Virus record (IMG/VR): IMGVR_UViG_3300037067_022550
Length of the DNA stretch: 64,000 nt
Strand: one strand, 5' to 3'
From: a virus
Shown here: positions 42,679 to 63,777 of the stretch, piece by piece
Position numbering within the stretch: the stretch's first letter is position 1
Layout of the letters: each line of letters opens with the position of its first letter
The notes under the pieces: generated by a model
Told to the model about the DNA's origin: nothing
The model's input: only the letters and a program-made list of their open reading frames with translations
Database searches by the model: none
Made by a program: the position numbers and the translations under genes

Positions 42679-42880
42679 AAAATGGCTTAGTGAAACTCCT
42701 CCATGTTGTGAAATTTGTGGGAAACTATTTAATTCTACTGATAATTTTTTCTACGATTTTAAAACATGGAACGGTTCTTGGGGAATTGGATGTGAAACAT
42801 GCTTTAAAGAAAATGAAGGCCAACTCGGGAGCGGTTGTGGTCAAAAATATGATTTAAAAACATTGGAGAAAATATTATGA
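42665..42880 (+). CDS. cysteine-rich zinc-finger protein
   Basis: CCEICGK...CETCF...GCGQ. Confidence 0.45.
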   Translation: MKTNEKWLSETPPCCEICGKLFNSTDNFFYDFKTWNGSWGIGCETCFKENEGQLGSGCGQKYDLKTLEKIL

Positions 42881-43653
42881 AAAATATGATTGATAGAATA
42901 TCTTTATGGATTGCAGAAAAGGTTATTAGTTCTAAATGTAAGGGTGTTTTATACGGACTTAGCGGCGGAATTGACTCTGCAGTAGTGGCTGCTCTTTGTA
43001 GCAAAAGTTTAAGAAGGAACCAACATTTAGGAGTTATAATGCCATGCGGTTCTCAAAAAGAAGACCAGGAAGATGCCATTTTAGTTGCAAGTCATTTAAA
43101 TATTCAAACAGATGTTTTTGATCTTGGAAATACTTACGAAAGTTTATCTCCCAAAAGCTTGTTAAAGTATAACAATCAATTAGCAAATGCCAACCTGAAA
43201 GCAAGATTAAGAATGGCAACCCTATATTATTTTGCCAATACTCTTTCTTATATGGTTGTTGGAACTGGCAACAAATCAGAAATAATGGTGGGTTATGGCA
43301 CTAAATATGGTGATGAAGGTGTTGATATTCAACCTATTGGCGATCTTTACAAAACTCAAGTTTTTGAAATGGCAAAAGTTCTTAATCTTCCAGACAAGAT
43401 TATTAACAAAATTCCATCAGCTGGTCTTTGGCCAGGTCAGAGCGATGAAGAAGAAATGGGAATAACCTATAAAGAACTAGACAGAATTCTGATGGCAATT
43501 GAAAAAAATCACGGATGGGCAATAAATGACAATGAGGCTTCATTTTGTATAGATGAAAAAATATCATTAGAAGATTACCGCAAAGTTAGGAAAATGGTTG
43601 ATAATTCAGATCACAAGAGAAAAATGCCACCAATCTATCATATATGGTCATAA
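42877..43653 (+). CDS. nadE: NH3-dependent NAD+ synthetase
   Basis: SGGIDS PP-loop; GYGTKYGDEGVDIQPIGDLYKTQV and PSAGLWPGQSDEEEMGITYKELD parallel E. coli NadE blocks. Confidence 0.85.
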   Translation: MKNMIDRISLWIAEKVISSKCKGVLYGLSGGIDSAVVAALCSKSLRRNQHLGVIMPCGSQKEDQEDAILVASHLNIQTDVFDLGNTYESLSPKSLLKYNNQLANANLKARLRMATLYYFANTLSYMVVGTGNKSEIMVGYGTKYGDEGVDIQPIGDLYKTQVFEMAKVLNLPDKIINKIPSAGLWPGQSDEEEMGITYKELDRILMAIEKNHGWAINDNEASFCIDEKISLEDYRKVRKMVDNSDHKRKMPPIYHIWS

Positions 43654-43984
43654 AATGAAAAAAATTAAAATATTAGCACAGGAAAATGATAGAGGAGAAT
43701 TAATTGTTGATTCAGACAAAAGAATTAGTGTTTGGCTAGTTTGGTCACTTGCAGAATATCAAAACGGTATGCCGATGCTTGATTTAAGGGCTATTGCAAC
43801 ATCTTTAAAACAAGCAGAAAAGTATAAAGATTTATTGGAAAAAGATTTCTTGAAAGACAAAGATATGCTGCGTTCTTATAAACTTAAAGAAGACATAAAA
43901 ATAAATATAGAAGAAAGAATAACTAATCATTGTTATAGTTTATCTATGTCCTTGTTAGATCATATTTTATATCCCGAAAGGTAA
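43598..43984 (+). CDS. hypothetical protein (probable true start at 43655, MKKIKILAQ)
   Basis: Track ORF overlaps nadE 3' end; internal ATG right after nadE stop. Confidence 0.45.
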   Translation: MIIQITREKCHQSIIYGHKMKKIKILAQENDRGELIVDSDKRISVWLVWSLAEYQNGMPMLDLRAIATSLKQAEKYKDLLEKDFLKDKDMLRSYKLKEDIKINIEERITNHCYSLSMSLLDHILYPER

Positions 43985-43985
43985 A

Positions 43986-44255
43986 ATGAAGTATCCCGAA
44001 CATTGTAAAAGATCAAAGGAAAAGTTTGGAAAGAATTGGGAAGTTGTGCATAGATGGCTTGATAAGTTTGCTAGACAAGATTTGACCAATCATCGTAGAG
44101 CTAGACATCACAAGGAAGGCGTAGAAGAAGTAAGAAAAAAATGGGGAGAAGAAGCAGCTTTGGTTGCCGAACAGCACATAATGGACGATATGGGGGGATT
44201 TGTCCCTGACGCCGATTGGTATAACAAGAATTGGATAGAACATAAGAACTATTAA
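43986..44255 (+). CDS. hypothetical protein
   Basis: 89-aa ORF. Confidence 0.5.
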   Translation: MKYPEHCKRSKEKFGKNWEVVHRWLDKFARQDLTNHRRARHHKEGVEEVRKKWGEEAALVAEQHIMDDMGGFVPDADWYNKNWIEHKNY

Positions 44256-44263
44256 GGATAATC

Positions 44264-44893
44264 ATGAAAAAAATATGCATAACTGGTGGAATTGCTTGTG
44301 GTAAAAGTGAAGTTGGAAAAATGATAGAAAGTTACGGATTTCCTGTTTTAGACACAGATGTTGTTGCTCATAGAATATTGGAATCTGATTTAATGTTGAC
44401 CAGAGTTTTGTTTTCTGAATTTGGGAAGAGAATAATAGATCAAAAAAACGGTTCTATAAACAGAAAAGAACTTAGTAAGATTGTATTTGAGAATAAGAAA
44501 TCTTTGGATTTATTAAACGGTTTAATTCATCCAAAAATACTTTGTTATACCCATCTATGGACTAACTTAATGGAAAAAATTTATCCCAAACAGCTTTTTT
44601 GTTTTTGTATAATTCCGTTAGTGTTTGAAACCAAAGATCAAGATAAATGGGATAGAATAATTTGTGTTTATTCAAATAAATCAATTCAAAAAAGTAGAAT
44701 TAAAATGAGAGGTTTAAACGATGAAGAAATAGCACAAAGGATAAATTCCCAAATAGATATTGAAGAAAAAGTAAAAAACTCTCACTTAATTATAGAAAAT
44801 AATAATGGGACAATTGAAGATTTAGACAAAAAAGTTATTGATGTAATTAATATATTAAAACAATGGCATGACTGTAATTATATGGATTATTAA
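44264..44893 (+). CDS. coaE: dephospho-CoA kinase
   Basis: MKKICITGGIACGKSEVGK...VLDTD matches CoaE N-terminus (GxxGSGKS + D-x-D). Confidence 0.8.
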   Translation: MKKICITGGIACGKSEVGKMIESYGFPVLDTDVVAHRILESDLMLTRVLFSEFGKRIIDQKNGSINRKELSKIVFENKKSLDLLNGLIHPKILCYTHLWTNLMEKIYPKQLFCFCIIPLVFETKDQDKWDRIICVYSNKSIQKSRIKMRGLNDEEIAQRINSQIDIEEKVKNSHLIIENNNGTIEDLDKKVIDVINILKQWHDCNYMDY

Positions 44894-44901
44894 AAATTAA
44901 A

Positions 44902-45399
44902 ATGAAAACAAATATTCAAAAAGCAATTGATTTTTTGTGGAAAAATAGAGAAGAATATAGAGACAAAATTCGTAATGGAGAAGAAATAATATTCGTTTCT
45001 CCAAAATATGCTAACTTGCCAGAAGAAATATTAAGAAATTTAACAGAAGAAGAAATTGATGCAATTCGCGGTTTGTGGGCAGAATTTCTTGGATGGGATG
45101 TTGAAACGGGTTGTGCTGTCATTAATTTTGAAAACAAAAAGACATATTATTCGTCTATTAAAAAATATATTAAAAGATCAAGAAAGGAAGAAGTTATTCT
45201 TGGTGATTTTCTTGCATGGGCATTAAAAAACAAATGGTGGATACGTGGTTTTCAATCTATAATTAGAACCAAAAATGGATACGGTCAAGACGGATGGAGT
45301 TTTGTTTGGACTACTCAATGCGGTTTTGTAACTGATGATGATATCAGAAAAGTAATACCCAATAAAACAACTAAACAATGGGAATGTTGGGGAAGATAA
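44902..45399 (+). CDS. hypothetical protein
   Basis: 165-aa ORF. Confidence 0.5.
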   Translation: MKTNIQKAIDFLWKNREEYRDKIRNGEEIIFVSPKYANLPEEILRNLTEEEIDAIRGLWAEFLGWDVETGCAVINFENKKTYYSSIKKYIKRSRKEEVILGDFLAWALKNKWWIRGFQSIIRTKNGYGQDGWSFVWTTQCGFVTDDDIRKVIPNKTTKQWECWGR

Positions 45400-45474
45400 T
45401 TCTTTAAAAATAACTTGACTTTTTAATTTATTTTGATAGTCTAAAGGAAATAAATCAAAAGAAAGATACTACAA

Positions 45475-45678
45475 ATGGGAAATAAAGAACAAAAAGACTC
45501 TAAAACTCCTATAGAGTTGAATGTTAAATTAATGTCTGATGATGAATTATTTGAGCAGTTAAAATGTCTTGTTAATCAATCCAGATTTAATGGTTTTTAT
45601 AACAAGAAACTTGCTGTAGCTGTGGGAAAAGAATGTAACGCAAGAAAATGGTTTTTAAATAAAAGGAAACAAATGTGA
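45475..45678 (+). CDS. hypothetical protein
   Basis: 67-aa ORF. Confidence 0.45.
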   Translation: MGNKEQKDSKTPIELNVKLMSDDELFEQLKCLVNQSRFNGFYNKKLAVAVGKECNARKWFLNKRKQM

Positions 45679-46712
45679 CTATTTCTGTAAACAATTTAAT
45701 AAATCATATAAATATGTCCACCTACAACGTTTCTTTTGCCTTTGATGATAAGATTGGCAACGGAATTGATCTAATTAAAGCACGGGAAATATTAGCACAT
45801 GGAATGATTAGCTTAATTCAAAATTATGAACAAACAGAATTATCAAATATAATTTCGCATATAGAACATGATAAAGATTTCGATATAAATTTTTCTATGG
45901 AAAAAAGTTCTAAAAAAATATATCTTATTCCTTCCTTTAATTCCACATCTATCTCTGCCCTTAAATCAGAATTTACTTGTTTAATTGCCAACATCAGTGG
46001 AAAATTTCATCCTCACGGAATAGTTATAATAACAGATAAAGCTAGAAGATCAGCCTTAATTGGAGTGAGGATAGAAAAAGAAAAAGAAAAAGTGCCTGGA
46101 AAGATAATAAGAGATGTTGATGATGTTGAATCTGTTGCTTATTTTTCAGGAATAATAGCTGCCAACGGAAAAATAAAATTCTATCCTAGGGAATATACAA
46201 GGAGAGGAGAAAAAATGGTTTCTAAAAGAGGAAAGGGGGAATCTTTTAAAACAACAACCACATTTGAATTGGTTGATGAAGTTGTTTTAGACAAGAAGGA
46301 AATAAGAAATAAGTTTCTTCCTTATTTTACTCCTCAAGCATCTGAAGATAAACAAATTATGTCATGCAAGTCTAATTTTTTGTTATCTTGGAAATCTGAA
46401 TGTGCTTCTTTATCTAACAGCATTGGTTTGGGAGAAGATTTTCAAAAACTACTGGACAGGACAGAAGCATATGAAAGGGCACAAGAAGCTTTGCCTCCAG
46501 AAAAACGAAACCAATCCAGTTCTATATTTGTCATGGAAATGAAAGAATTTAAGGATAAAATAAAAGAAAAAATCATAATGTCTCCTGAACTTAATCAAAT
46601 AATAAAAGATGAATATTCTATAAAATTTAACACTAATCTGACCAGAAATGAATCAGAAAGTATTTTACAAGAGTATTTTCAAAAAGGACTAAAAGGGGAA
46701 AAAATAACCTAA
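45675..46712 (+). CDS. hypothetical protein
   Basis: 345-aa ORF. Confidence 0.55.
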   Translation: MTISVNNLINHINMSTYNVSFAFDDKIGNGIDLIKAREILAHGMISLIQNYEQTELSNIISHIEHDKDFDINFSMEKSSKKIYLIPSFNSTSISALKSEFTCLIANISGKFHPHGIVIITDKARRSALIGVRIEKEKEKVPGKIIRDVDDVESVAYFSGIIAANGKIKFYPREYTRRGEKMVSKRGKGESFKTTTTFELVDEVVLDKKEIRNKFLPYFTPQASEDKQIMSCKSNFLLSWKSECASLSNSIGLGEDFQKLLDRTEAYERAQEALPPEKRNQSSSIFVMEMKEFKDKIKEKIIMSPELNQIIKDEYSIKFNTNLTRNESESILQEYFQKGLKGEKIT

Positions 46713-46714
46713 AA

Positions 46715-46906
46715 TTGGAATATTATATGTTAATTAAAACTAAAAATGTATTGGAATTGAATTTTAAGATTTCAGAACTAGAAGAAAGAATTTCTTATTT
46801 GGAAGATGAAAACAAAAAATTTCACAATCAATTAAAAAAAATTATAAAATTAAAACAATCCCAATACAAACATAAACCTTATTGTCAGTTGAAAGATAGG
46901 AAATAA
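46715..46906 (+). CDS. hypothetical coiled-coil protein
   Basis: 63-aa ORF. Confidence 0.4.
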   Translation: MEYYMLIKTKNVLELNFKISELEERISYLEDENKKFHNQLKKIIKLKQSQYKHKPYCQLKDRK

Positions 46907-46924
46907 TAATTATAAGGAGAAAAA

Positions 46925-47137
46925 ATGGTAATTTGTGTAAAATGTAAAATTGAAATGAAACCAGATAAAAATGGGGTTGGAGCAGATTATGGCAATGGTC
47001 ATGTCTATGTTGGGGATAGATATAAATGTTCTATTTGTGGCAATATGGTTTTACAAACAAATTCTGCACCAATTTATGATGCAAATTATGATTCCCAGCA
47101 AGAATATTTAAAAATGAGCGTTTTTACCAGAATTTGA
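46925..47137 (+). CDS. zinc-ribbon protein
   Basis: AAGGAG RBS; CVKCK...CSICG. Confidence 0.5.
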   Translation: MVICVKCKIEMKPDKNGVGADYGNGHVYVGDRYKCSICGNMVLQTNSAPIYDANYDSQQEYLKMSVFTRI

Positions 47138-47198
47138 TTGAGAATATAAAAAACGTTAAAATAGATCTTAATAAAACTTAGAAAGGATATAAATAGTA

Positions 47199-47537
47199 AT
47201 GATTAAAAAGTTTACGGTAACAAAAGATCATTTAAAATTACTGAGAAGAATGTATGTGGATTGGGATTATTGTGAGTTTGGAGCACCAGCTATTGATCCC
47301 AAAAGACCTTATGGTAATAGTTCTGTTTTAAATGATATACATGAAATTATTACTGGTGAAGAGATAGGAATGGTAGATAGTAAACGCGACGAGTTAACAG
47401 AATGTGAAGAAGAAAGATATTTAAAATTGCATAAGGAAACAAAAACAGCTTTGCAAATTGTTCTTGCGGTTGGAAAATTTGAAATTGGTGATTACGAAGC
47501 AGACAACTATGATATAAAGTGGAAAAAATGTAAATAA
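47199..47537 (+). CDS. hypothetical protein
   Basis: 112-aa ORF. Confidence 0.5.
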   Translation: MIKKFTVTKDHLKLLRRMYVDWDYCEFGAPAIDPKRPYGNSSVLNDIHEIITGEEIGMVDSKRDELTECEEERYLKLHKETKTALQIVLAVGKFEIGDYEADNYDIKWKKCK

Positions 47538-47549
47538 GGATGTAAAATT

Positions 47550-47783
47550 ATGTCTATAGAAGTAACATGTTTTTTTTGCAAAACAGATATGGATAAAACG
47601 GGAGCAGTGTTATGGTCTCCCCCTTTCGATCCACCCATATTTACTCCTTATAAGTCTGGGGAAACGCCCATTACTTGTGATAAATTTCATATTTGTAGAA
47701 AATGTTTCAAAGAAATAATGAAAAAAAATGTAAGAAAAATAATAGAAAGAGGAGTAAAAAATTATGTCATTAAAAAAAGTTAA
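47550..47783 (+). CDS. zinc-ribbon protein
   Basis: CFFCK...CRKCF. Confidence 0.45.
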   Translation: MSIEVTCFFCKTDMDKTGAVLWSPPFDPPIFTPYKSGETPITCDKFHICRKCFKEIMKKNVRKIIERGVKNYVIKKS

Positions 47784-48495
47784 GGTTGGCAGTAATATGT
47801 ACCAGGATTGGATAACGCACGTTCACACCCATCTCGGTGGAGAATGTAGCCACAAATGTATATATTGCTATGTTAAGGGTCCATCCATGAAGAAAAAGCC
47901 TTGCATTGCAGAAAGATATTCTGGAAAATTAAGACTTATTGAAAAAGAGTTTGATGTCAACTATGGCAGGGGAAAGACCATCTTTATGGAACATTGTAAC
48001 GATTTATTTGCAAAAGATGTTCCTGACGAGTTTATATGCAGAATTATTAATCATTGCTCTATGTTTCCCGAAAACACTTATGTATTTCAAACAAAGAACC
48101 CAGCAAGATTTTATGGGTTCTTGCATCTGATGCCCAGAAATACTACCAATGCAATTCTTGGAGCTACCATAGAAACCAATAGAGATATGTCTGAAGTTAG
48201 TAAGGCTCCTCCTGCTCAAAAAAGATATGAAGCAATGAAAAATTTATCTTGCAGAAAATTCATTACGGTGGAACCAATATTGCGATTCGATCTAAAAATT
48301 CTAGCAAAATGGATTGGGGAAATAAAACCAGAATTCGTAAACATCGGAGCTGATTCTAAAGGTCATAATCTTATTGAGCCAACCTATGGAGAAATAGTTG
48401 CTTTAGCAGAAGAATTAAGAAATAAATACGGCATTAAAATAATAGAAAAGCACAACATGCAAAGATTAATTGATAAGGAAAAAATCAATGGATAA
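47764..48495 (+). CDS. phage Gp37/Gp68-like radical-SAM-type protein
   Basis: GGECSHKCIYCYV (C-S-H-x-C-x-Y-C-Y) signature. Confidence 0.55.
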   Translation: MSLKKVKVGSNMYQDWITHVHTHLGGECSHKCIYCYVKGPSMKKKPCIAERYSGKLRLIEKEFDVNYGRGKTIFMEHCNDLFAKDVPDEFICRIINHCSMFPENTYVFQTKNPARFYGFLHLMPRNTTNAILGATIETNRDMSEVSKAPPAQKRYEAMKNLSCRKFITVEPILRFDLKILAKWIGEIKPEFVNIGADSKGHNLIEPTYGEIVALAEELRNKYGIKIIEKHNMQRLIDKEKING

Positions 48496-48784
48496 AATTA
48501 CAAAAAAAAATTTAGAAGAAATGGGATTTTTACAATTAGGTAGTAGCTTTAATCCCACGTATTTTATAAATGATGAAATAAAAAAATTATTTGGTTTTAT
48601 GGTTGGGCAAACAAAATACAAGAAATGGTTTATTTATAAATGTTATAATGGAGATTGTGCCAACAAACTAAAAGAAGTAACTTGCATTAGGGAAGTTGTT
48701 CAAGAATTAATTTGGACATCAATTAATTATGGTAAGAACATAAGATCTAATGAAATAAAAAAACTTCTTTTGTCCAATGATTAG
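48470..48784 (+). CDS. hypothetical protein
   Basis: 104-aa ORF. Confidence 0.45.
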   Translation: MIRKKSMDKITKKNLEEMGFLQLGSSFNPTYFINDEIKKLFGFMVGQTKYKKWFIYKCYNGDCANKLKEVTCIREVVQELIWTSINYGKNIRSNEIKKLLLSND

Positions 48785-48977
48785 CAACAAGGAGAAAAAC
48801 ATGAAAATGAAAATGAAAATATCTGAAATTAAACACGATTTTCAAGAATGGGCATCGTTTGCAATTGGAGTGTCTCCTTTGTTGGGTTCACTAGTGTCCT
48901 ATACCAAAGAAAGCCCAAGTCTGATTTCGGTTATAATGGCGCTGGAAAAAACTGGATATGAAATAGAATATGCTTAA
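48777..48977 (+). CDS. hypothetical protein
   Basis: 66-aa ORF. Confidence 0.4.
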   Translation: MISNKEKNMKMKMKISEIKHDFQEWASFAIGVSPLLGSLVSYTKESPSLISVIMALEKTGYEIEYA

Positions 48978-49000
48978 ACTTATAAAAATTAGGGGAAATA

Positions 49001-49210
49001 ATGCCAATTCAACATAATAAAAATTTTGGAGTTTATCATTGGGACACCTTTGACAATGAAACATTACTTGTAGGTGAAGCAAATACACTTAATGAAGCAG
49101 AAGAAATAGTCCAAAAAAAATATAAGGGGCGTATAAGTGGACAAGGAGCAGACCAAGTTGATATTGTGGACAAAAAGGGGAGCATTGTTGCGAAGTTTCA
49201 TGTGATGTAA
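49001..49210 (+). CDS. hypothetical protein
   Basis: 69-aa ORF. Confidence 0.45.
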   Translation: MPIQHNKNFGVYHWDTFDNETLLVGEANTLNEAEEIVQKKYKGRISGQGADQVDIVDKKGSIVAKFHVM

Positions 49211-49211
49211 T

Positions 49212-49421
49212 ATGAAAACAAAAATTAAAACCGGAATGAAAGACGATAATGGCGATGCTATTTATATTGGCAATGTTCTTCAAAGCATAAACGGATATAA
49301 AGTTGTTGTTCAGATTGGAGATGATGGCAAGTTTGAAGGAAAATTAGTGTGCAAAAAATCACACCCATGCGCCAATATTCCTTATCACCTAAATAACGGA
49401 AAAGACCACATTATTGCTTAA
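49212..49421 (+). CDS. hypothetical protein
   Basis: 69-aa ORF. Confidence 0.45.
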   Translation: MKTKIKTGMKDDNGDAIYIGNVLQSINGYKVVVQIGDDGKFEGKLVCKKSHPCANIPYHLNNGKDHIIA

Positions 49422-49431
49422 AGGAGAATGA

Positions 49432-49701
49432 ATGCACAAATCATATTTAACAAAATTAATTAAAGACATTCCGGATAATGCAGATATAGTAATTAGTAAG
49501 TGCTTTGTACTTGATGAAAAAAAAGAGATAACAGGCATTCTGGATATTCCGATTGTTGGAACTGCTTTTAATAAAGATAATAATGAATTTCGTTTCATGT
49601 TACTTTTGAAAGATGTTGATGGTAGCTTCCCGCCAAAAGATTTAAAGTTTTTTAAGAAAAGTAAAAAAAGAAGTGAAAACAAAAAGAAGAAAACTATGTA
49701 A
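49432..49701 (+). CDS. hypothetical protein
   Basis: AAGGAG RBS; 89 aa. Confidence 0.45.
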   Translation: MHKSYLTKLIKDIPDNADIVISKCFVLDEKKEITGILDIPIVGTAFNKDNNEFRFMLLLKDVDGSFPPKDLKFFKKSKKRSENKKKKTM

Positions 49702-50243: not shown

Positions 50244-50257
50244 AAAAGGTAGATTAT

Positions 50258-50527: not shown

Positions 50528-50528
50528 A

Positions 50529-50996: not shown

Positions 50997-51007
50997 TTGA
51001 GGACGCC

Positions 51008-51292: not shown

Positions 51293-51575
51293 AAAAGTAC
51301 GCATAATGGGTCAAGATATGAGATTTTTTATTGACAATAACGCTCCTGACTATCAAGATGGAGGAACATTTACTAAAGTTATTCTTTATGGGGAAAATAC
51401 AGAAAGATGGCATTGGAATGTTGACCATAATTACCAAAGATTAGATAAAAAACCAAGAATAATTCATAACACTATGCCTCAATGCAAAAGTAAAAAAACA
51501 AAATTCAATAAATTAATTTCTGCAAGTGATGTTAAAAAAGCATTTATGGAAAGAAAATTTAGAAAAGCACAATAA
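51243..51575 (+). CDS. hypothetical protein (start uncertain; possible start at 51306 MGQDMRFF)
   Basis: 110-aa ORF overlapping the interrupted ORF. Confidence 0.4.
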   Translation: MKECITNPRNPTVKKSRKVRIMGQDMRFFIDNNAPDYQDGGTFTKVILYGENTERWHWNVDHNYQRLDKKPRIIHNTMPQCKSKKTKFNKLISASDVKKAFMERKFRKAQ

Positions 51576-52335
51576 AAGGAGAAATCAGATGTATAAGAAA
51601 GAAGAATATATTTTGAAAAAAAGCATTGGTGAAGAAATTTTTGATCTTTTCTGTAAATATAATTGTTTAATTGCTGGTGGAGCTATCACTAGTATTTTTA
51701 GTGGTAATATTATTAAGGATTATGATGTTTATTTTCACGATAAAGAGTCTTTAGAAAAACTTAAAAAACATATGATAAGTTTGTCAGAAAACCAGATGAA
51801 CCCTAAAATAGGTAAAGTTATTATATCAATAACAACTCCTAACTCCTTTAATTTTTCAGTTGGTAATAAAATTTTTCAACTAATTCTCTTGGATGATTTA
51901 ATACAAACAGATACAAAAAAAATTATTGAACAATTTGATTTTACTGTTTGTATGGGGGCATATGATTTTCAAACTAATTCTTTTGTTTTTGATAAAGATT
52001 TTTTCAATCATCTTTCTCAAAGATCTTTAGTTTATAATATCAATTCACAATATCCATTTGCATCACTATATAGAGTGATTAAATATATTAAAAAGGGTTT
52101 TAAAATATCTGGAATTGAGATGATTAAATTGGGTTTAAAATGCAATAATATTAAAATAAATAATTATCAAGAATTAAGGAAACAATTATTGGGAATTGAT
52201 ACTTTGTTTTTAAAAGATTTAACAGACAAATTTAATTCTTCTGAAATGGCAGAAAAAGAATATGATTTTAATTATTTTTTAGGTTTAATGGATGATTACC
52301 TGTCAAAAATTAGTGAATTTAATATGAATGAATAA
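51526..52335 (+). CDS. nucleotidyltransferase-fold protein (probable start 51589, MYKKEEYIL after AAAGGAG)
   Basis: AGGAITSIFSGNIIKDYDVYF fits hG[GS]-x(9-13)-DhDh pol-beta NTase signature. Confidence 0.45.
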   Translation: MMLKKHLWKENLEKHNKRRNQMYKKEEYILKKSIGEEIFDLFCKYNCLIAGGAITSIFSGNIIKDYDVYFHDKESLEKLKKHMISLSENQMNPKIGKVIISITTPNSFNFSVGNKIFQLILLDDLIQTDTKKIIEQFDFTVCMGAYDFQTNSFVFDKDFFNHLSQRSLVYNINSQYPFASLYRVIKYIKKGFKISGIEMIKLGLKCNNIKINNYQELRKQLLGIDTLFLKDLTDKFNSSEMAEKEYDFNYFLGLMDDYLSKISEFNMNE

Positions 52336-55463: not shown

Positions 55464-55475
55464 GGAAAGAATATT

Positions 55476-56738
55476 ATGCAAGTAATTCAATCAAATAAAC
55501 CAAACAAAGTAATCTACTCTTGGTGCCCAAATATTGATCAAAATGCTCTTGACCAAGCCAAGCTACTTGTTGAACAACTCTTTGTTTTTAGGCACATGTC
55601 TCTTATGCCAGATACACATAAGGGGACAGTAATGCCAATTGGAGGGGTATTAGCCACTAAAGATGTTATTCTTCCTTTTTGCGTCGGTTCAGATGGAGGC
55701 TGTGGAATGTGTGCTGTAAAAACTTCTTTGAAGATTGAAGACTTCAGAGAAGGACAGAAGGAAGAACTTTTGCATAGTATGGAAAGAAGCGTTCCTGTAG
55801 GTTTTCAGCATAATGACGAAAAAAGAATGGGGGAAATAAGGCAAAAATATATTCAAAAAATTGAGTATTTGCTTAAAAAAAACGAAGCAGTGTTAAGAGC
55901 TTCAACACGAATATTTCAAAACGTGCCAAAAACTATTGAAGAACAGGTTGGAACCCTTGGTGGAGGCAACCATTTCTGTGAGATACAATATGATCAAGAT
56001 GAAAACATTTGGATAATGATTCACTCAGGATCTAGAAATATAGGAACTAAAATTTGCGATACTTTCAATGATATCGCAATTGATTTAAATAAGAAATATT
56101 ATTCTCAAGTTCCAGAATCAATCCCATTTCTTCCTACCAACACAATGGAAGCAAAAGAATATCTTGCTTATATGAATTTTGCGTTAGACTTTGCTTTTCT
56201 TAACAGGCAAATTATGATGGATTATATTAAAAAGGATATTTCTTTTTCATTCAAACATATGCAAGTTGATTTTGAAAAAATGATTAATATTCACCACAAT
56301 TATGCTTCTCTTGAAAACCATTTCGGAGAAAACGTATGGATTCATCGTAAGGGGGCAACACTAGCCACTAAAGGAACCATTGGGATCATACCTGGGGCAG
56401 CTGATAAAAATTCAGCTTCATATATAGTTCGGGGGAAGGGTAATCCTGACTCTTATAATTCTTGTTCTCATGGTGCTGGCAGAGTAATGGGTAGAAAAGC
56501 GTTTAACCAAATATATAATACTCCAGAAAAAATGAGGGAAATTGTATCTTCCCTAGACGGAATTACTCATAGCAAGTTTAAGAAAGAACAATCTTACAAG
56601 AAAAATAAAGAAACGGGATTGCTTGATGTTTCTGAAGCTGGTGCTGCATATAAAAATGTTTTCTCAGTTATGAAGAACCAGGAAGATTTAGTTGAAATTG
56701 TTACAACCCTTAAAACCTATATTAATATGAAGGGTTAA
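55476..56738 (+). CDS. rtcB: RtcB RNA ligase (3'-phosphate/5'-OH)
   Basis: MPDTHKGTVMPIGGVLATKDVILPFCVGSDGGCGM and downstream His-rich blocks typical of RtcB. Confidence 0.9.
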   Translation: MQVIQSNKPNKVIYSWCPNIDQNALDQAKLLVEQLFVFRHMSLMPDTHKGTVMPIGGVLATKDVILPFCVGSDGGCGMCAVKTSLKIEDFREGQKEELLHSMERSVPVGFQHNDEKRMGEIRQKYIQKIEYLLKKNEAVLRASTRIFQNVPKTIEEQVGTLGGGNHFCEIQYDQDENIWIMIHSGSRNIGTKICDTFNDIAIDLNKKYYSQVPESIPFLPTNTMEAKEYLAYMNFALDFAFLNRQIMMDYIKKDISFSFKHMQVDFEKMINIHHNYASLENHFGENVWIHRKGATLATKGTIGIIPGAADKNSASYIVRGKGNPDSYNSCSHGAGRVMGRKAFNQIYNTPEKMREIVSSLDGITHSKFKKEQSYKKNKETGLLDVSEAGAAYKNVFSVMKNQEDLVEIVTTLKTYINMKG

Positions 56739-56744
56739 CTATCT

Positions 56745-57224
56745 ATGATTTCTGACGCCGTAATAAACGCTTTTATGAAAAAGCTTAAAAGAGGATGGGA
56801 TCAATGGTCTAGAATGTATTGGGCCATTGACCTCCACGACGTTATCATTCCGGGTACATACACATTAAACAACGATGGTAAATATCCGTTTCCATATGCT
56901 GTAGAAGTTTTACAGTGGCTTACAAATCGCAAAGACATGGCCATTATTCTTTTTACTTCAGGGCATTTTGATCCAACTCTTAATATAAGAAAGTGGCTGT
57001 CAGAAGAATATGGAATTAGTTTTGACTTCGTTAATGAAAATCCAGAATGCCCAGACAATGAGCTTTGTTGTTTTGAAAGTAAATTTTATTTTGACGTTAT
57101 GCTTGAAGATAAGGCTGGCTTTAATGGTATGTCAGATTGGAAAAAAATTAAGGATTCTTTGATTGAATTAGGAGAATGGAATAAAAAGATTTCTCACGAA
57201 CAACAAATAATAAGTAAGGGATAA
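56745..57224 (+). CDS. hypothetical protein
   Basis: 159-aa ORF directly after rtcB. Confidence 0.5.
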   Translation: MISDAVINAFMKKLKRGWDQWSRMYWAIDLHDVIIPGTYTLNNDGKYPFPYAVEVLQWLTNRKDMAIILFTSGHFDPTLNIRKWLSEEYGISFDFVNENPECPDNELCCFESKFYFDVMLEDKAGFNGMSDWKKIKDSLIELGEWNKKISHEQQIISKG

Positions 57225-57228
57225 TATT

Positions 57229-57585
57229 ATGAAAATATATAATTATGGAAAATTTCCAAAAGATTGCACTTATAAATATGGAAATATTGCCTCACTTGAA
57301 GACTCTGAAATTGAAATATTAAAGAATATGGGAATTTCTAATATTTATTATTGGTATGCTTCTGGAAATTTTGAGGGATCTGGTAAAATGTTGTGCAAAA
57401 AAGATAATTTATGGCATATTCATGATATGTCGCATTGTTCTTGTTATGACTGTATAGAAAATATAAACTTATCTCCTTATGGTGGCTATTCTTCATTAAA
57501 AGAATTAAAATTAAAATGCACAGATGAATTGTTTAAAGAAATAGAACCATTATTTAATAAAGCTAAAAAGGATAAACACAAATAA
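57229..57585 (+). CDS. hypothetical protein
   Basis: 118-aa ORF. Confidence 0.5.
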   Translation: MKIYNYGKFPKDCTYKYGNIASLEDSEIEILKNMGISNIYYWYASGNFEGSGKMLCKKDNLWHIHDMSHCSCYDCIENINLSPYGGYSSLKELKLKCTDELFKEIEPLFNKAKKDKHK

Positions 57586-57606
57586 AAGAAGATGATAGGG
57601 AATTGA

Positions 57607-58008
57607 TTGTTTTTATTACTCAACATAAAAATTTTGGACAAAGGGGATAAAATGAAAAAAAAGACAAACTTAACAAATAGCAAGTCTCCATCTTGTTTGG
57701 GGGATTGCCTTATAATATTACAAAAAACACTATCTCCAGAAATAATTAATGATTTTAAAAACATAACAGAAGAAATGGTTATAAAATATCATCATGGGTT
57801 GGGAACTTCCATAAGAAATGGTTTTGGTTTGTGGGGAAGAAAAACAGAAATTGCCAAGTGGTTCTCCAAAAAAGGAGTCTTGCATCCGGATGACATGTCT
57901 GGAATTGTTTTGCATTCTCTTTGGAGGAAGTTGCACAAAAAACCAATTAATTTTAAAGAACAGGTTAAATATTACCAAGATTATTGGAAAACAAATGGTT
58001 TTTTGTAA
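57607..58008 (+). CDS. hypothetical protein (probable start 57652 after GGGG RBS)
   Basis: 133-aa track ORF; internal MKKKTNL start has RBS. Confidence 0.5.
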   Translation: MFLLLNIKILDKGDKMKKKTNLTNSKSPSCLGDCLIILQKTLSPEIINDFKNITEEMVIKYHHGLGTSIRNGFGLWGRKTEIAKWFSKKGVLHPDDMSGIVLHSLWRKLHKKPINFKEQVKYYQDYWKTNGFL

Positions 58009-58076
58009 TATCATTAGGACAGAATGTAAAGTAATCTGTTTAATGCCCGTTAAAACTATTAAAAAAGGATATAATT

Positions 58077-58250
58077 ATGCTTGCTTGTATATGCTGTGGA
58101 ATAGTTGAAACAGGAGTGGTTTTGATTATTATTTCATTATTTAGACCAATTTATCGTTTTATTAATTGGATTTGTATTCGTTTGGGATGTAAATGCAAAT
58201 GTCATCACGAAAAAACAGAAGAAAAAGAGCAACAAAAGGAACAAAAATGA
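58077..58250 (+). CDS. 57-aa membrane/Cys-rich micropeptide
   Basis: Manual ORF MLACICCGIVETGVVLIIISLFRPIYRFINWICIRLGCKCKCHH... Confidence 0.3.
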   Translation: MLACICCGIVETGVVLIIISLFRPIYRFINWICIRLGCKCKCHHEKTEEKEQQKEQK

Positions 58251-58558
58251 TTATTGTTAATAGGTGTCCAGAAGATAGTATGCCTATCAGCACTTTAACT
58301 GACAAACATGTTTATGATTTAGTCAACAAGGGATTAACTCTTGAAAAAATAGCGACAGAAGTAACAAAAGATAATGCAAATCTTCATACTTTTAATCCAT
58401 TACTTCTTAACTTTTTTGAAGACGAATATGCAATAAATAATTTTGTTATTTTTAAAAATGGAAAGTTTTTAAAATTATTTGAAAATGATAAAATCAAATA
58501 TAAATTAAAATCAATGGGTCCAGGAGAAGTTGTTGCAGATACAGAAGGAGTTTTATAA
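58193..58558 (+). CDS. hypothetical protein (start uncertain, possibly 58247 MIIVNRCPE)
   Basis: 121-aa track ORF overlapping the micropeptide ORF. Confidence 0.45.
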   Translation: MQMSSRKNRRKRATKGTKMIIVNRCPEDSMPISTLTDKHVYDLVNKGLTLEKIATEVTKDNANLHTFNPLLLNFFEDEYAINNFVIFKNGKFLKLFENDKIKYKLKSMGPGEVVADTEGVL

Positions 58559-58585
58559 AACATTAATTTTAAGGTGTAAAAATAT

Positions 58586-59008
58586 ATGTTTGACACAATT
58601 GTAAATCATCAAAAAGAATATGTTCCATATACAAAAAAAGTGGAAATTACTGAAAAAAAAGCTCCCACTGATCAAAGTATTGAAATTCTTAAAGAAATGG
58701 AAGAAAAAATATTAAGTAGAATAGTTAAAAATATTATAACGGACAATAACATTCTTTCTGTATCAGTAACTTTTATACAAGATCATATTGGCTACAATGC
58801 TCAAATAATTTCTAAAATTAAACTCAATAATATAGATTATGTTTTTACATATAATTATGTATTTTTTAAAAATATTGATGAAAATATGAAATGTTTTATT
58901 GAAGAACTGTCTGTGTTTATTGCACAAAAAATATTCAATAAAATGTTTCAACAAGAAAATCAAGATTTTATTAATGCAATGAAAATTTTGAGCCGTAAAC
59001 AAAATTAA
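58586..59008 (+). CDS. hypothetical protein
   Basis: 140-aa ORF. Confidence 0.5.
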   Translation: MFDTIVNHQKEYVPYTKKVEITEKKAPTDQSIEILKEMEEKILSRIVKNIITDNNILSVSVTFIQDHIGYNAQIISKIKLNNIDYVFTYNYVFFKNIDENMKCFIEELSVFIAQKIFNKMFQQENQDFINAMKILSRKQN

Positions 59009-59031
59009 TTGCATTAAACAAGGCAATTATT

Positions 59032-59907
59032 ATGAGTTACATGCATATAAATCAACTTTATAAAAGCAGAGAAATAATGCTATTTAAAGAGTGCTATGCT
59101 CTTGAAAAAATACATGGAACTAGTAGCCACACATCTTACAAGAATGGTAAAATTTCATATTTTTCTGGTGGTGAAAGTTATGAAAATTTTATTAAAATTT
59201 TCGATGAAAAGATTTTGTTGCCAGCTTTTTGGAAAATAGGAATAAATGATATAACTGTTTACGGCGAAGCTTATGGTGGATCTCAACAGGGTATGTCGCA
59301 TACATATGGAAAAGAAACAAGATTTATAGTTTTTGACATAAAAATTTATGAACATTTTATTTCTGTTCCGGAAGCAGAAGCAATAGCTAAAGAATTGGGG
59401 CTTGAATTTGTTCACTACAGAAAGATTCCAACAACTATAGAAGCACTTGATGCAGAGATGTATTTACCATCAGTTCAAGCAGAAAGAAACGGCTGTGGAA
59501 TTGATAAAAAAAGAGAGGGAATCGTTCTTCGTCCATTAGTAGAAATGATTAAAAGTACTGGGGAAAGAATTATTTCTAAACACAAAAGACCAGATTTTAA
59601 AGAAACTAAAAATGAAAGAAAATTAAATGTTGATCCTGAAAAGTTAAAGATTTTGGAAGACGCAGAAGCAATAGCTGTTGAATGGGTCACTCCCATGCGT
59701 TTGGAACATATCTTACAAAAATTTCCAGACAAAAAAATAGAACAATGTGGAGAAATTGCAAAAGCTATGATTGAAGATGTTATTAGAGAAGGAAAAGGAG
59801 AAATAGTTGATTCAAAAGAAGCAAGAAAAGCCATCAGTAAAAAAGCCATTGAACTTTTCAAAGAGAAGATAAATAATCCATTGAAACAAAAGGAAATTGT
59901 CAGATGA
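59032..59907 (+). CDS. RNA ligase 2 family (T4 Rnl2-like adenylyltransferase domain)
   Basis: Motif I LEKIHGTSS (T4 Rnl2 REKIHGTN), motif IV EGIVLRP (EGYVLKP), motif V RIISKHKR. Confidence 0.85.
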   Translation: MSYMHINQLYKSREIMLFKECYALEKIHGTSSHTSYKNGKISYFSGGESYENFIKIFDEKILLPAFWKIGINDITVYGEAYGGSQQGMSHTYGKETRFIVFDIKIYEHFISVPEAEAIAKELGLEFVHYRKIPTTIEALDAEMYLPSVQAERNGCGIDKKREGIVLRPLVEMIKSTGERIISKHKRPDFKETKNERKLNVDPEKLKILEDAEAIAVEWVTPMRLEHILQKFPDKKIEQCGEIAKAMIEDVIREGKGEIVDSKEARKAISKKAIELFKEKINNPLKQKEIVR

Positions 59908-60104
59908 TTAAAAAAATGGTGATGTTTAGGATTTCCCCTGAATTGAATGACGGAGATCACTATGGAGTATGCAAAACTAAAGAACAGCTTATTGAAGCAG
60001 TTTCTAATTGGGCAGATAATGCCGTTGATGGGCATCCAGATGAATGTTCAATTGAAACAATAGAAATGACAGAAGAAGAGTTTAACGCAATTCCAGAATC
60101 ATAG
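59904..60104 (+). CDS. hypothetical protein
   Basis: 66-aa ORF overlapping rnl2 stop. Confidence 0.45.
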   Translation: MIKKMVMFRISPELNDGDHYGVCKTKEQLIEAVSNWADNAVDGHPDECSIETIEMTEEEFNAIPES

Positions 60105-60367
60105 TCTCAACCATAAAAAAAGAATGGCAAAATAGCACAAATTTTTATGTTTTTGCAGTTGTCATCTTTACGGATAGTTGGTTAAAGCAACATCCGGACA
60201 AAATGTCCGTATAATTGTCCAGATATTGCTTTTTTGACAATAATATTAAAATTTGCACAGTACAAGCTTGTATTGTATTGTGAAAATTTTTTGATTAAAT
60301 AACCATATGTTTCTTGTAAGCTTTGTGGTGGATATGGAGAAGTTCCAAAAGGATCTATAACTAAAAA

Positions 60368-60919
60368 ATGAAAAAAATTAAAGTAAAAGATGCTCATAAT
60401 TTTTATCATCCCCCTCTTCTACCAATGCCTGATATCCCCTGTTGTCTACATCACGGTTCGTTTTTTTCTAAAAGAAAATTTGATGTTCATACTGGAGTTG
60501 ATCTTTATGCAAAAGTTGGATCAAAAGTATATGCTATAGAAGAAGGAGAAGTAGTTAAGGTAAGATATTTTACTGGCAAAGAAATTGGATGCCCTCATTG
60601 GAATACTACTTGGGCTGTTGATATAGAAAGCTATAGTGGTATTTTTTGTTATGGAGAAATACTACCAATTAAAGGATTGGAAACTGGAAATAAAGTTATG
60701 GCCGGAGAAGTTATTGGTACTGTAATGGAAGTCCTTAAAGAAAACAAAGGAAAACCGACCAGCATGTTGCACTTTGCAATCCATACTCATGGTTGGAAAT
60801 ATCTGGTTGGAGATCAGGAAGATTCAACTCAAGAAAGTTTCTATGACCTACAAATAGATCCTACTATGTTATTAATACAATTAAAAAATAAATCTGACGC
60901 AATAATTAATAATTTTTAA
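60368..60919 (+). CDS. M23 family metallopeptidase (LytM-like; candidate lysin)
   Basis: HTGVDL (HxxxD) and HFAIH (HxH) motifs. Confidence 0.7.
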   Translation: MKKIKVKDAHNFYHPPLLPMPDIPCCLHHGSFFSKRKFDVHTGVDLYAKVGSKVYAIEEGEVVKVRYFTGKEIGCPHWNTTWAVDIESYSGIFCYGEILPIKGLETGNKVMAGEVIGTVMEVLKENKGKPTSMLHFAIHTHGWKYLVGDQEDSTQESFYDLQIDPTMLLIQLKNKSDAIINNF

Positions 60920-61070
60920 ACTTGACTTATATAAAACTAATTGCTACCTTCTTTTTATTGAAAGGAAAAATATATTAATAAATGAAACCTATAATCCAAA
61001 GCCTATTAGATAATGACACATATAAATAATGACAATAACATAAATAGATAAAGGTATTTTTTATTTTCTT

Positions 61071-61787
61071 TTGAATGATAATCAAAGGAGAATAAAAATG
61101 GGGTGTATATACGGATTTGTAGATAAAGATGATAAGATTTTTTATGTTGGACAAGCAAAAAATATTAAAACAAGAATGTATGGACATGTGTTTGAAGTAA
61201 GGCACGGCAACAAGTTATATCTATACAATAAACTTAGGAAAATTATTTCTGAAAACGAATGTTCTGTTTCTTCTCTTGCAATAGTAATTGAAGATAATAT
61301 AGACGAAGAAAAAATGGATGAAAGAGAAATATTTCATATAAAGCGATTAAGGGTAGATGGGTGTAAACTAACAAATATTTTAGACGGAGGAAGAAGATGG
61401 CTAAATGGTCCATCAGAAGAACAAAGAAATAAAATTAGAATAGCTCATTTAGGAAAAAAAAGAAGTTTAGAAACAAGAAGGCGAATGAGTGAATCACAAA
61501 CTGGTAGAAAATTTTCTCAAGAACATAAAAAAAAGTTAAGTATTGCTAGACGAAAAAGAGTAACAACAGACGAAACCAGAAGAAAGTTGAGTTTATCAAG
61601 GAAGGGTAAAGTTAATATTAAGAAATATATTTTAATAGACCCTAATGGCATAGAGTATGTTACTACTGAAGGAATGACGAAGTTTTGTGAAGACCATGGT
61701 TTATCTACTCCAAACATACATAAGGTTTTAACTGGAGAAAGAAAAAACCATAAAGGCTGGAAAATTAGAGAATACTGCCAAAGTTAA
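61071..61787 (+). CDS. GIY-YIG homing endonuclease with NUMOD3-like repeats (I-TevI-like)
   Basis: GCIYGFVDKDDKIFYVGQAKN...R...H; repeated ...IARRKRVTT.ETRRKLSLSRKGK DNA-binding modules. Confidence 0.85.
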   Translation: MNDNQRRIKMGCIYGFVDKDDKIFYVGQAKNIKTRMYGHVFEVRHGNKLYLYNKLRKIISENECSVSSLAIVIEDNIDEEKMDEREIFHIKRLRVDGCKLTNILDGGRRWLNGPSEEQRNKIRIAHLGKKRSLETRRRMSESQTGRKFSQEHKKKLSIARRKRVTTDETRRKLSLSRKGKVNIKKYILIDPNGIEYVTTEGMTKFCEDHGLSTPNIHKVLTGERKNHKGWKIREYCQS

Positions 61788-61802
61788 TATCTAAGGAAAA
61801 CA

Positions 61803-62972
61803 ATGAATCAAATACCTCAAAGTTTATTAGACACAGACCTTTACACCTTTAGTGTTCAAAATGCCATTCTTGACCATTTCTATGATGCCAGGGCTGAATA
61901 TAGATTTGTCAATAGAGGTTATCATAAAATAACCCCCCAACTTATAGAAGCCCTTAAGTTTCAAGTATATAATGTTTTTCCGTCAATTTATTTAACAGAT
62001 TACGAATACCACTGGCTAAAATCCACCTGCAAACATCTTAAACCATGGTACTTTGAATATTTAAAAAACTATAGGTTTAATCCAGAAGAGGTAAAAATAG
62101 AACAAGATGGAAATGAAACAAAAATAAGTGTTATTGGTCCTTGGCACTCCACTATTATGTGGGAGGTCCCTTTGCTTTATACCATCTCGCAATTATATCA
62201 TGAAATCGTTGATAATAATTGGTCAATGGAAGGTCAAGTTGAAAAAATAAATTTAAAGGGGAAAAAACTTTCTAATAATGATTGTTTTACAGCAGATATG
62301 TCTACTCGCAGACGCAGAAATTTTAATTCTCAAAAGATAGTAGTAGAAGAATTAAAAAAATACCCTTGTTTTAATGGAACATCAAATACTTATCTTGCTA
62401 TGTTAAACAGCGTAAAACCAATTGGGACAATGAGTCACCAGTGGATATCTGCTATGCAAGCTCTTAGAAGTATCCGTTATTGCAATCATTATGCCATGGA
62501 CTATTGGGTTAAGACTTTTGGAACATCTTTAGGGATTATGCTGACTGATACAGTAACTAGTGATTGCTTCTTAAAAAGTTTCAGTCCCTATTTTGCTAAT
62601 CTTTTTAGTGGCACAAGATGTGATTCTGGAATAGAACTTGAATATGTTGATAAAATGATAAAACATTATAAATCTCTTAATATAAACCCCAATCACAAAT
62701 GTATAATTTTTAGCAACTCCTTAAATGTAGATAAGGCAATAAAAATTAGGAAATATTGCGAAGGAAAAATAGGATGTTCTTTTGGCATTGGCAATCACTT
62801 GGGAAATGATTTTGAAAACAGTCCTGCCCCAAACATGGTAATTAAGTTGTGGTCTATTAATGGAATTCCAGTTGTTAAATTATCTGACGACCTTGGTAAA
62901 TTAATTGGGGATAAAGATGCTGTCAAAGTTACAAAATGGGAGTGTTGTGGGACTACTATAGAAGTAGATTAG
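61803..62972 (+). CDS. pncB: nicotinate phosphoribosyltransferase
   Basis: N-terminal SLLDTDLYTFSVQNAILDHFYD matches E. coli PncB [21 protein letters not shown]. Confidence 0.8.
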   Translation: MNQIPQSLLDTDLYTFSVQNAILDHFYDARAEYRFVNRGYHKITPQLIEALKFQVYNVFPSIYLTDYEYHWLKSTCKHLKPWYFEYLKNYRFNPEEVKIEQDGNETKISVIGPWHSTIMWEVPLLYTISQLYHEIVDNNWSMEGQVEKINLKGKKLSNNDCFTADMSTRRRRNFNSQKIVVEELKKYPCFNGTSNTYLAMLNSVKPIGTMSHQWISAMQALRSIRYCNHYAMDYWVKTFGTSLGIMLTDTVTSDCFLKSFSPYFANLFSGTRCDSGIELEYVDKMIKHYKSLNINPNHKCIIFSNSLNVDKAIKIRKYCEGKIGCSFGIGNHLGNDFENSPAPNMVIKLWSINGIPVVKLSDDLGKLIGDKDAVKVTKWECCGTTIEVD

Positions 62973-62984
62973 GGAACTAAAACA

Positions 62985-63206
62985 ATGAAAAAATTAAACG
63001 ATAAAATATATAAACTTTTAAAAGTCAAATATAATAAAAAAGACAAATTAGATATTGAAGAATTAGAATCAATAAGTAAAGATGCAACTGAAGGTCTTAG
63101 AACTATTAACGGAGATACTGCAACAGTAGAAATTTCTGTTCGTCAATTTATACTTTTGTTACAAGAATGGTACAAATGCAACATAAATAATATTAAGGAG
63201 AAATAA
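62985..63206 (+). CDS. hypothetical protein
   Basis: 73-aa ORF between pncB and pncA. Confidence 0.45.
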   Translation: MKKLNDKIYKLLKVKYNKKDKLDIEELESISKDATEGLRTINGDTATVEISVRQFILLLQEWYKCNINNIKEK

Positions 63207-63207
63207 A

Positions 63208-63777
63208 ATGAGTAAGGCATTGATTATAGTAGATATGCAAAAAGATTTTGTTGACGGTTCACTTCCAGTACCAAAGGCAATAGAAATAATACCAGTTATT
63301 TATTGGATTGTTGGTAATGTAAAGTATGATTGTATAATAGAAACGCTTGATTGGCATCCTGAAAATCATATTAGTTTTAAACAGTGGGGAGTACACTGTT
63401 TGCAAAATTTTTCGGGGGCAAAATCTGTTTTAAATTTCAAATTTGAAGATTGTTCTTCCTATTATTCTACTTATAGAGGGGTTATTCGCAAGGGAACTAA
63501 CGTTGATGTAGATTCTTATTCTGGATTTTTTGATAACCTTTATATTTCAGGAACTGGTTTAGAAGAAAAATTGAGAATGGCAGATGAAGGAAGAATAAAT
63601 GAAATTGATATAGTTGGTTTAGCAACAGATTATTGTGTTAAATTTACGGCAATAGATGCAGCCAAATTAGGATACAAAACCAATGTAATTTCTTTTGCTT
63701 GCAGAGGAGTAGATTTAACAACTACAGCTAAAGCAATTGAAGAAATGAAAAATAAATACAACATTAATGTTATATAA
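63208..63777 (+). CDS. pncA: nicotinamidase/isochorismatase-family hydrolase
   Basis: ALIIVDMQKDFVDGSLPV N-terminal block and catalytic-Cys block GLATDYCVKFTAIDA. Confidence 0.8.
   Translation: MSKALIIVDMQKDFVDGSLPVPKAIEIIPVIYWIVGNVKYDCIIETLDWHPENHISFKQWGVHCLQNFSGAKSVLNFKFEDCSSYYSTYRGVIRKGTNVDVDSYSGFFDNLYISGTGLEEKLRMADEGRINEIDIVGLATDYCVKFTAIDAAKLGYKTNVISFACRGVDLTTTAKAIEEMKNKYNINVI

Follow-up and report, generated by a model that had tools for sequence, protein, structure and literature searches.

The 64,000-nucleotide stretch analysed here, IMG/VR virus record IMGVR_UViG_3300037067_022550 (the window), carries genes for a predicted NAD+ synthetase (NadE), nicotinate phosphoribosyltransferase (PncB) and nicotinamidase (PncA), together with a gene for CoaE, the dephospho-coenzyme A (CoA) kinase of the final CoA-synthesis step. 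All four genes are intact and lie on the plus strand, and the open reading frames (ORFs) assigned to them by an earlier model-made annotation, which had proposed a phage-encoded Preiss-Handler NAD salvage set (hereafter the sequence-only reading), proved exact. The window forms part of a larger phage-like contig: identical PncB and NadE proteins are found on a 263,965-bp contig, a length that exceeds 200 kb. A 74.8-kb ENA contig (L001) supplies 9 kb past the end of the window; the window and these 9 kb are together called the visible region below. With moderate confidence, we interpret the set as an auxiliary Preiss-Handler NAD+ salvage module of an uncultured jumbo phage, placed within a wider programme of cofactor supply. 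The features of the locus are collected in Table 1.

Table 1 Features of the window and of the 9 kb that follow it (aa, amino acids)
Feature	Position	Strand	Basis and remarks
NadE	42877-43653	+	258 aa; PF02540, NF010587, TIGR00552
PncB	61803-62972	+	TIGR01514, NF003704, PF04095, PF17767
PncA	63208-63777	+	PF00857; triad D9/K95/C143; metal site D48/H50/H54/H63
CoaE	44264-44893	+	TIGR00152, PF01121
CoaB and CoaC	L001 13582-14948, ~3.6-5 kb beyond the end of the window		Two genes after PncA; PF04127 (E 9.6e-30), PF02441 (E 4e-34)
ORF of 73 aa	62985-63206	+	No family match; between pncB and pncA
GIY-YIG/NUMOD homing endonuclease	61071-61787	+	Pfam GIY-YIG, NUMOD3, I-HmuI NUMOD-like
DUF6915 small protein	43986-44255	+	PF21866 (E 3e-10); between NadE and CoaE
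NADAR-domain protein (ADP-ribose-processing family)	22771-23235	+	PF08719, phrog_1017
AAA_28 P-loop protein	23572-24123		phrog_2107 'thymidylate kinase'
Gad2-like protein	51526-52335	+	269 aa; PF26128 (precomputed match)
Protein with unassigned C-terminal domain	31210-32322	-	370 aa; domain at residues 264-366
RNA-repair genes	1676-2794; 13350-14543; 55476-56738; 59032-59907; 23572-25124	-; -; +; +; 	Unusually dense
Transposase-like gene	37616-38740	-	phrog_506, phrog_12300
tRNA-Arg(TCT) gene	6619-6695	-	

Predicted NAD enzymes and the adenylyltransferase step

The NadE protein is predicted to be an ammonia-dependent NAD+ synthetase, converting nicotinate adenine dinucleotide (NaAD) to NAD+. 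It matches PF02540 at E 1.5e-80, exceeds the cut-off of the NCBIfam equivalog NF010587 ('NAD+ synthase'; 281 bits, cut-off 255), scores 267 bits with TIGR00552 and matches phrog_11189 'NAD synthetase' at E 2.8e-57. Its best PDB matches are 2E18, 3P52, 1XNG and 3FIU, and residues 29-34 (SGGIDS) form the P-loop characteristic of the SGGxDS ATP-pyrophosphatase type. The protein consists of one domain of the ammonia type, the glutaminase domain being absent. PncB is predicted to be an ATP-coupled nicotinate phosphoribosyltransferase that joins nicotinate and phosphoribosyl pyrophosphate (PRPP) to give nicotinate mononucleotide (NaMN). It scores above both NCBIfam cut-offs (TIGR01514, 365 bits against 269.6; NF003704, 402 against 379), its six PDB matches are all nicotinate phosphoribosyltransferases, and neither H212, the equivalent of the phospho-histidine, nor the TRRRR stretch at residues 168-172 varies among 30 aligned homologues.

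PncA, the third member of the trio, is predicted to be a nicotinamidase that releases nicotinate and NH3 from nicotinamide. The best 9 of its 11 PDB matches are nicotinamidases or pyrazinamidases (one carrying a generic fold name only), with residues 3-183 aligned, and the catalytic triad and the metal site are both retained. The hidden Markov model (HMM) check suggested by the sequence-only reading bore out NadE and PncB, which clear curated NCBIfam cut-offs with their residues intact, and divided over PncA, which keeps its catalytic residues and passes the Pfam cut-off (PF00857, 58 bits against 27) but falls short of the NCBIfam equivalog NF008623 (137 bits against 174).

Namat and Nampt were considered as identities for PncB and ruled out. 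TIGR01514 is passed, the PDB matches are to nicotinate phosphoribosyltransferases only, and the PRPS-type family to which Adps belongs has no match in any Pfam scan; PncB is therefore regarded as a true nicotinate phosphoribosyltransferase. The loss of catalytic residues, or a transferase dependent on ADP-ribose pyrophosphate (ADPR-PP), which the sequence-only reading had named as the outcomes that would undo its assignment, was not what we found, H212 being kept. Nampt is absent from the visible region, where the sole phosphoribosyltransferase is of the nicotinate type.

In the layout of the locus, only 12 and 1 bp separate the 73-aa ORF from pncB and pncA on either side. NadE is found 18 kb upstream of this group, within the same co-directional plus-strand block that runs from 40.8 to 64 kb and holds all the NAD genes; given this distance, the three genes do not form one operon. 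The 73-aa ORF was also considered as a conserved partner and rejected, as the equally long ORF after pncB in another lineage (L008) is not similar to it.

The step between PncB and NadE, the adenylylation of NaMN, has no recognisable enzyme here, which upholds what the sequence-only reading had reported. None of the 124 called ORFs has an N-terminal (H/T)xGH motif, and PF01467, the cytidylyltransferase-like family, has no match in any Pfam scan of the window ORFs. We built a NadD HMM from seven phage NadDs and ran it on the six-frame translation of the window and the 9 kb from L001, where it found nothing (best E 0.64); the same model recovered NadDs outside its training set in five other loci (L004, L023, L024, L044 and L058). 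A NadR HMM and a phmmer search with PnuC against the same six-frame translation returned nothing below E 0.4. The AAA_28 P-loop protein was tried as a NadR-type ribosylnicotinamide kinase and rejected on its 'thymidylate kinase' assignment, a NadR HMM value of E 1.1 and no PDB match. An all-against-all search near PncB revealed no conserved substitute for NadD; its sole finds were the homing endonuclease, DUF6915 and a domain adjacent to CoaB. Separately, a 420-aa metagenomic protein (P0188), 51% identical to the window NadE, combines PF01467 with PF02540 and thus represents a NadD-NadE fusion. To judge from its domain composition, P0188 shows that the last two pathway steps can be physically coupled.

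Coenzyme A genes linked to the NAD set

CoaE clears the TIGR00152 cut-off (143 bits against 65.6), matches PF01121 at E 3.1e-38 and carries a Walker A motif (GGIACGKS) at residues 8-15; it has homologues in other huge phages (LR756500, LR756501, LR756502 and LR745206). Two small ORFs, one of them DUF6915, separate it from NadE, so its placement two genes from nadE in the sequence-only reading was correct. With CoaB and CoaC, which follow PncA at a distance of two genes, three of the five CoA steps are encoded, and CoaA and CoaD were not found in the visible region. An adenylyltransferase of the HxGH type is accordingly the step missing from the CoA set, as it is from the NAD route. Linkage of this kind extends beyond the window: in L020, L028 and L059, PncB and NadE flank a CoaB-domain gene, and such a gene stands within 10 kb of PncB in 3 of 43 lineages. 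No description of CoA genes in jumbo phages came to light in our literature search.

Two observations on the surroundings of the CoA genes may be added. The minus-strand 370-aa protein of Table 1 ends in a domain of about 100 aa without a family match, and this domain is 40-43% identical to an ORF found immediately ahead of the CoaB-domain gene in L020, L028 and L059. The block of NadE, small ORF, DUF6915 and CoaE is kept in a relative with 78% NadE identity (L068, L069), and a relative with 67% NadE identity retains NadE, the small ORF and DUF6915 (loci L068-L070 examined). A DUF6915 homologue is also present in an unrelated 341-kb contig (L032), 3 kb downstream of its NAD operon.

Related gene sets and gene neighbours

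To place the set among other viruses, we scanned IMG/VR by alignment with PncB, which gave 56 loci in 43 non-redundant lineages, and counted partner genes within 10 kb. NadE accompanies PncB in 22 of the 43 lineages, PncA in 15 and both in 10; because one or the other is present in 27, the association of PncB with NadE and PncA is more than chance. NadD is near PncB in nine lineages and a NadR-like gene in three, and half of the trio-bearing lineages (5 of 10) have no adenylyltransferase nearby. The trio forms a contiguous PncB-NadE-PncA operon in L032, and L060 has an overlapping pncB-nadD-nadE operon with a NADAR gene 5 kb away. A 189-aa ORF in L008 was tried as a PncA and dropped for lack of similarity. 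Records labelled 'UNVERIFIED Bacteriophage sp.' (fecal) and 'Acinetobacter phage MD-2021a' were given low weight, as they may be bacterial.

In the closest relatives, the neighbours of PncB are FtsH, an NAD-dependent DNA ligase, a VWA protein, OmpA, an ABC transporter or a phage CRISPR-Cas system. The last of these occurs in a 140-kb contig (L002) whose PncB is 68% identical to that of the window; there the CRISPR-Cas genes lie next to PncB (1380-7049) and include Cas3-HD, Cas3, a Cas7fv-like protein and a Cas6-type protein, along with large Ser/Thr kinase-TPR proteins.

Gene sets of this type have been described before. Complete salvage or Preiss-Handler pathways were reported in 174 of 668 gut jumbo phages (PMC11662467, Microbiome 2024), in a study that displayed the pncB-nadD-nadE cluster of Kuafu_71, mentioned phage pncA, and proposed, by bioinformatics only, a counter-defence against NAD+ depletion. 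The same work noted that jumbo phages with Preiss-Handler genes also carry many NAD-consuming enzymes. It defined the 'NAD-jumbo phage' as a jumbo phage with all genes of at least one NAD+ pathway; the window resembles these phages in its jumbo setting and in its deamidated-route pair of PncB and NadE. Unlike in Kuafu_71, PncA is tightly linked to PncB, NadD is absent from the 73 kb, and NadE stands 18 kb off, beside CoaE. The composition is distinct from the Nampt/Nmnat and ADPR-PP routes, as the sequence-only reading had stated, but it is not new for phages (PMC11662467; Phosso and Atu_ph07, below). Its claim to novelty is overstated, because PMC11662467 had already described jumbo-phage Preiss-Handler sets and the counter-defence idea.

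Two further phages carry comparable clusters. The cultured Sinorhizobium jumbo phage Phosso (PV764938) has annotated NadE, PncB, MutT (Nudix) and NMN adenylyltransferase (NMNAT) genes, with a PncA-like 'hydrolase', among structural genes. In LR756501.1 (L003, 735 kb), the 8 kb at 423-431 kb hold PncB, NadE, a TonB-dependent receptor, PnuC, a NadR-like NMNAT/kinase and PncA; PMC11662467 credits LR756501 with only nadD and no complete pathway, which differs from the NAD cluster found here. What both share with the window is a jumbo or huge phage in which NadE, PncB and a hydrolase of the PncA type are clustered. Both differ from it in having an adenylyltransferase of their own (NMNAT in Phosso, the NadR-like protein in LR756501), with Nudix added in the former and PnuC in the latter, and their proteins share a low 25-39% identity with those of the window. 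Atu_ph07 likewise has annotated PncB and NadE genes.

On the host side, the operon most strongly up-regulated by jumbo phage PA5oct is pncA-pncB1-nadE (PMC7318152), which shows that boosting of the trio accompanies jumbo-phage infection. This Pseudomonas aeruginosa operon (PA4918-4920) encodes the same three enzymes, likewise without nadD; it is host-encoded and host-regulated, whereas the trio in the window is phage-borne and split between two places. Compared with these published examples, what sets the window apart is the presence of PncA, the absence of an adenylyltransferase from the part seen, and the division of the set, with NadE linked to CoaE.

The phage NAD+ routes proven by experiment are NARP1, NARP2 and NARP3, none of which is Preiss-Handler. 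NARP2, which comprises Nampt and Nmnat and was tested experimentally (Osterman et al., bioRxiv 10.1101/2024.02.11.579819), is similar to the window set in rebuilding NAD+ from nicotinamide and PRPP; it takes the amidated route through nicotinamide mononucleotide (NMN) in two self-contained steps, whereas the route in the window would be deamidated and run through four, one of them borrowed. NARP1 consists of Adps and Namat and joins ADPR-PP with nicotinamide, and NARP3 consists of PnuC and NadR and imports nicotinamide riboside (PMC13464706). These two systems share with the window set the phage-encoded restoration of NAD+, but all four of their proteins are absent from the window.

Among the genes around the NAD set, the homing endonuclease ends 15 bp upstream of pncB. 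Homologues with 30-47% identity have the same position and orientation, immediately before pncB, in six lineages (L016, L021, L028, L042, L047 and L048), and a remnant precedes pncB in a seventh (L064); the PncBs of these lineages are just 34-47% identical to that of the window. From this pattern, pncB looks like a conserved homing site, and homing there could help the gene spread among huge phages.

The NADAR protein named in the sequence-only reading is confirmed by PF08719 (94.5 bits, cut-off 35.1; E 1.1e-26) and phrog_1017 (E 1.9e-43), but it lies ~20 kb outside the interval given for the NAD set. It is adjoined by the AAA_28 P-loop kinase and a calcineurin-like phosphoesterase, which could be a Pnkp-like end-healing pair. 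The RNA-repair kit further comprises RtcB and three RNA ligases, one Rnl1-like (phrog_562), one matching PHA02142/phrog_968 and one Rnl2-like. The Gad2-like protein has a precomputed Pfam match to PF26128 (Gad2, an anti-Gabija family) that our local Pfam copy did not return, and it strongly matches PHROGs of unknown function and a nucleotidyltransferase PHROG. A transposase-like gene and a tRNA-Arg gene are also present (Table 1).

Proposed cofactor supply, possible counter-defence and probable phage origin

By the enzymology of these families, PncA converts nicotinamide to nicotinate, PncB converts nicotinate to NaMN with PRPP and ATP, NadD converts NaMN to NaAD, and NadE completes NAD+ with NH3 and ATP. 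In the module that we propose, the phage PncA would deamidate nicotinamide, PncB would draw on PRPP and ATP to turn the resulting nicotinate into NaMN, and the ammonia-dependent NadE would amidate NaAD to NAD+. The intervening step from NaMN to NaAD, for which the visible 73 kb encode no adenylyltransferase, would fall to the host's essential NadD, whose use we infer, or to a phage-encoded copy in another part of the 264-kb genome. The phage would in this way add copies of both salvage-specific steps and of the final step, and NAD+, along with CoA, would be kept available through a long and demanding infection. NadD is common to the de novo and salvage routes, which would account for phages so often leaving it to the host. 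Accelerated nicotinamide recycling would, in addition, weaken abortive infection by NADases, likely as a side benefit rather than a demonstrated dedicated function.

We favour cofactor provisioning because the NAD genes are interleaved with CoA genes and, to our knowledge, no known defence targets CoA. The CoA linkage, together with the position of PncB beside the NAD-dependent ligase and FtsH in relatives, fits provisioning at least as well as it fits counter-defence. Several points weigh against the proposed module. The Preiss-Handler route is incomplete as visible in 73 kb, NadD being the missing step, and the region inspected amounts to 73 of ~264 kb. No capsid, portal, terminase or tail gene was found in the 64-kb window, so the viral origin rests on gene content and relatives. 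PncA scores below its equivalog cut-off, co-regulation of NadE with PncB and PncA is unproven at a distance of 18 kb, and promoter and terminator scans around both gene groups gave counts equal to those in shuffled sequence. The enzyme activities, and any effect on NAD+ levels or immunity, are predicted from sequence. Finally, the candidate anti-defence neighbours (Gad2-like protein, NADAR, RNA repair and methyltransferases) fit dedicated immune evasion equally well.

Dedicated counter-defence is a possible reading that we hold only tentatively. It posits that the trio chiefly rebuilds NAD+ from the nicotinamide freed by SIR2, TIR, SEFIR and RES NADases, so that the phage escapes abortive infection. 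Starting from nicotinamide, PRPP and ATP, such a route would work whatever befalls the ADP-ribose half, e.g., its conversion to the ADPR-1''-phosphate made by aRES. With NARP1, NARP2 and NARP3, phages overcome NADase defences by making NAD+ anew; PncA makes sense only with nicotinamide as the input, and the role was proposed in PMC11662467. The window is also rich in candidates of this kind, among them the Gad2-like protein, NADAR, RtcB with three RNA ligases, and DNA methyltransferases, and in LR756501 the cluster also takes in the NARP3 pair, PnuC and a NadR-like gene. Set against this, the route takes four steps, more ATP and a borrowed NadD, and would be slower and less self-contained than NARP1 to NARP3; the linked CoA genes have no known immune target; and the PncB of closer relatives adjoins FtsH, the NAD-dependent ligase and the ABC transporter rather than anti-defence genes. 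In our literature search, no paper connected nicotinamidase or the enzymes of the Preiss-Handler route with counter-defence tested by experiment. An effect of this kind is plausible, and a counter-defence role can only be inferred.

A different chemistry, which we consider improbable, would make NadE an NMN synthetase of the Francisella type that converts NaMN to NMN, with NAD+ then formed by an NMN adenylyltransferase of the NadR or NadM type rather than by NadD. The window NadE falls in a short clade with the Francisella tularensis enzyme (3FIU, 146 bits, against 164 for the best match), and in several lineages (L003, L048 to L052) the trio is accompanied by a NadR-like NMNAT and by no nearby NadD. 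Given the specificity of NadR, such a pairing is complete only if NadE accepts NaMN. The best matches of the window protein are nevertheless ordinary NAD+ synthetases, NF010587 is passed, and neither the window nor the following 9 kb shows an NMNAT.

The window is very probably of jumbo-phage origin, even though it has no DNA-level match to known phages (24-kb megablast, 2-kb blastn). That it is instead a cellular or plasmid segment with ordinary housekeeping enzymes is highly improbable: the lack of structural genes, an exact-peptide IMG/VR scan with PncB that gave no match, and nearest named NadE homologues that are bacterial (50-55% identity) would suit such a segment, but the window (30% GC) is 93% coding with 124 ORFs of median 118 aa in long co-directional blocks, matches more than 20 PHROG families, including T4-type Rnl1 and Rnl2 RNA ligases, several homing endonucleases and DNA methyltransferases, lacks ribosomal or core cellular genes, and has its closest PncB relatives on IMG/VR contigs of 90 to 548 kb and in huge phages of 460 to 735 kb.

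NAD+ is central to the conflict of phages with bacteria, and the phage routes proven so far do without deamidated Preiss-Handler chemistry. As both the concept and gene sets of this type are in the literature, the value of the present case is confirmatory rather than conceptual: the window provides a clean example of PncA, PncB and NadE, and the trio recurs in many huge-phage lineages, often contiguous and often without NadD. It is doubtful, in our estimate, that the trio with host NadD constitutes a genuine fourth phage route of NAD+ reconstitution, one that defeats SIR2, TIR and RES NADases and is insensitive to aRES. If it does, the absence of an adenylyltransferase from 5 of the 10 trio lineages and the linkage to a CoA set without CoaD would suggest either that these phages deliberately rely on the HxGH adenylyltransferases of their hosts or that they encode a substitute not yet recognised. 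The genes of the window, together with the cultured phages Phosso and Atu_ph07, offer a concrete set with which to test whether these enzymes counter NADase immunity or feed an NAD-hungry jumbo phage.

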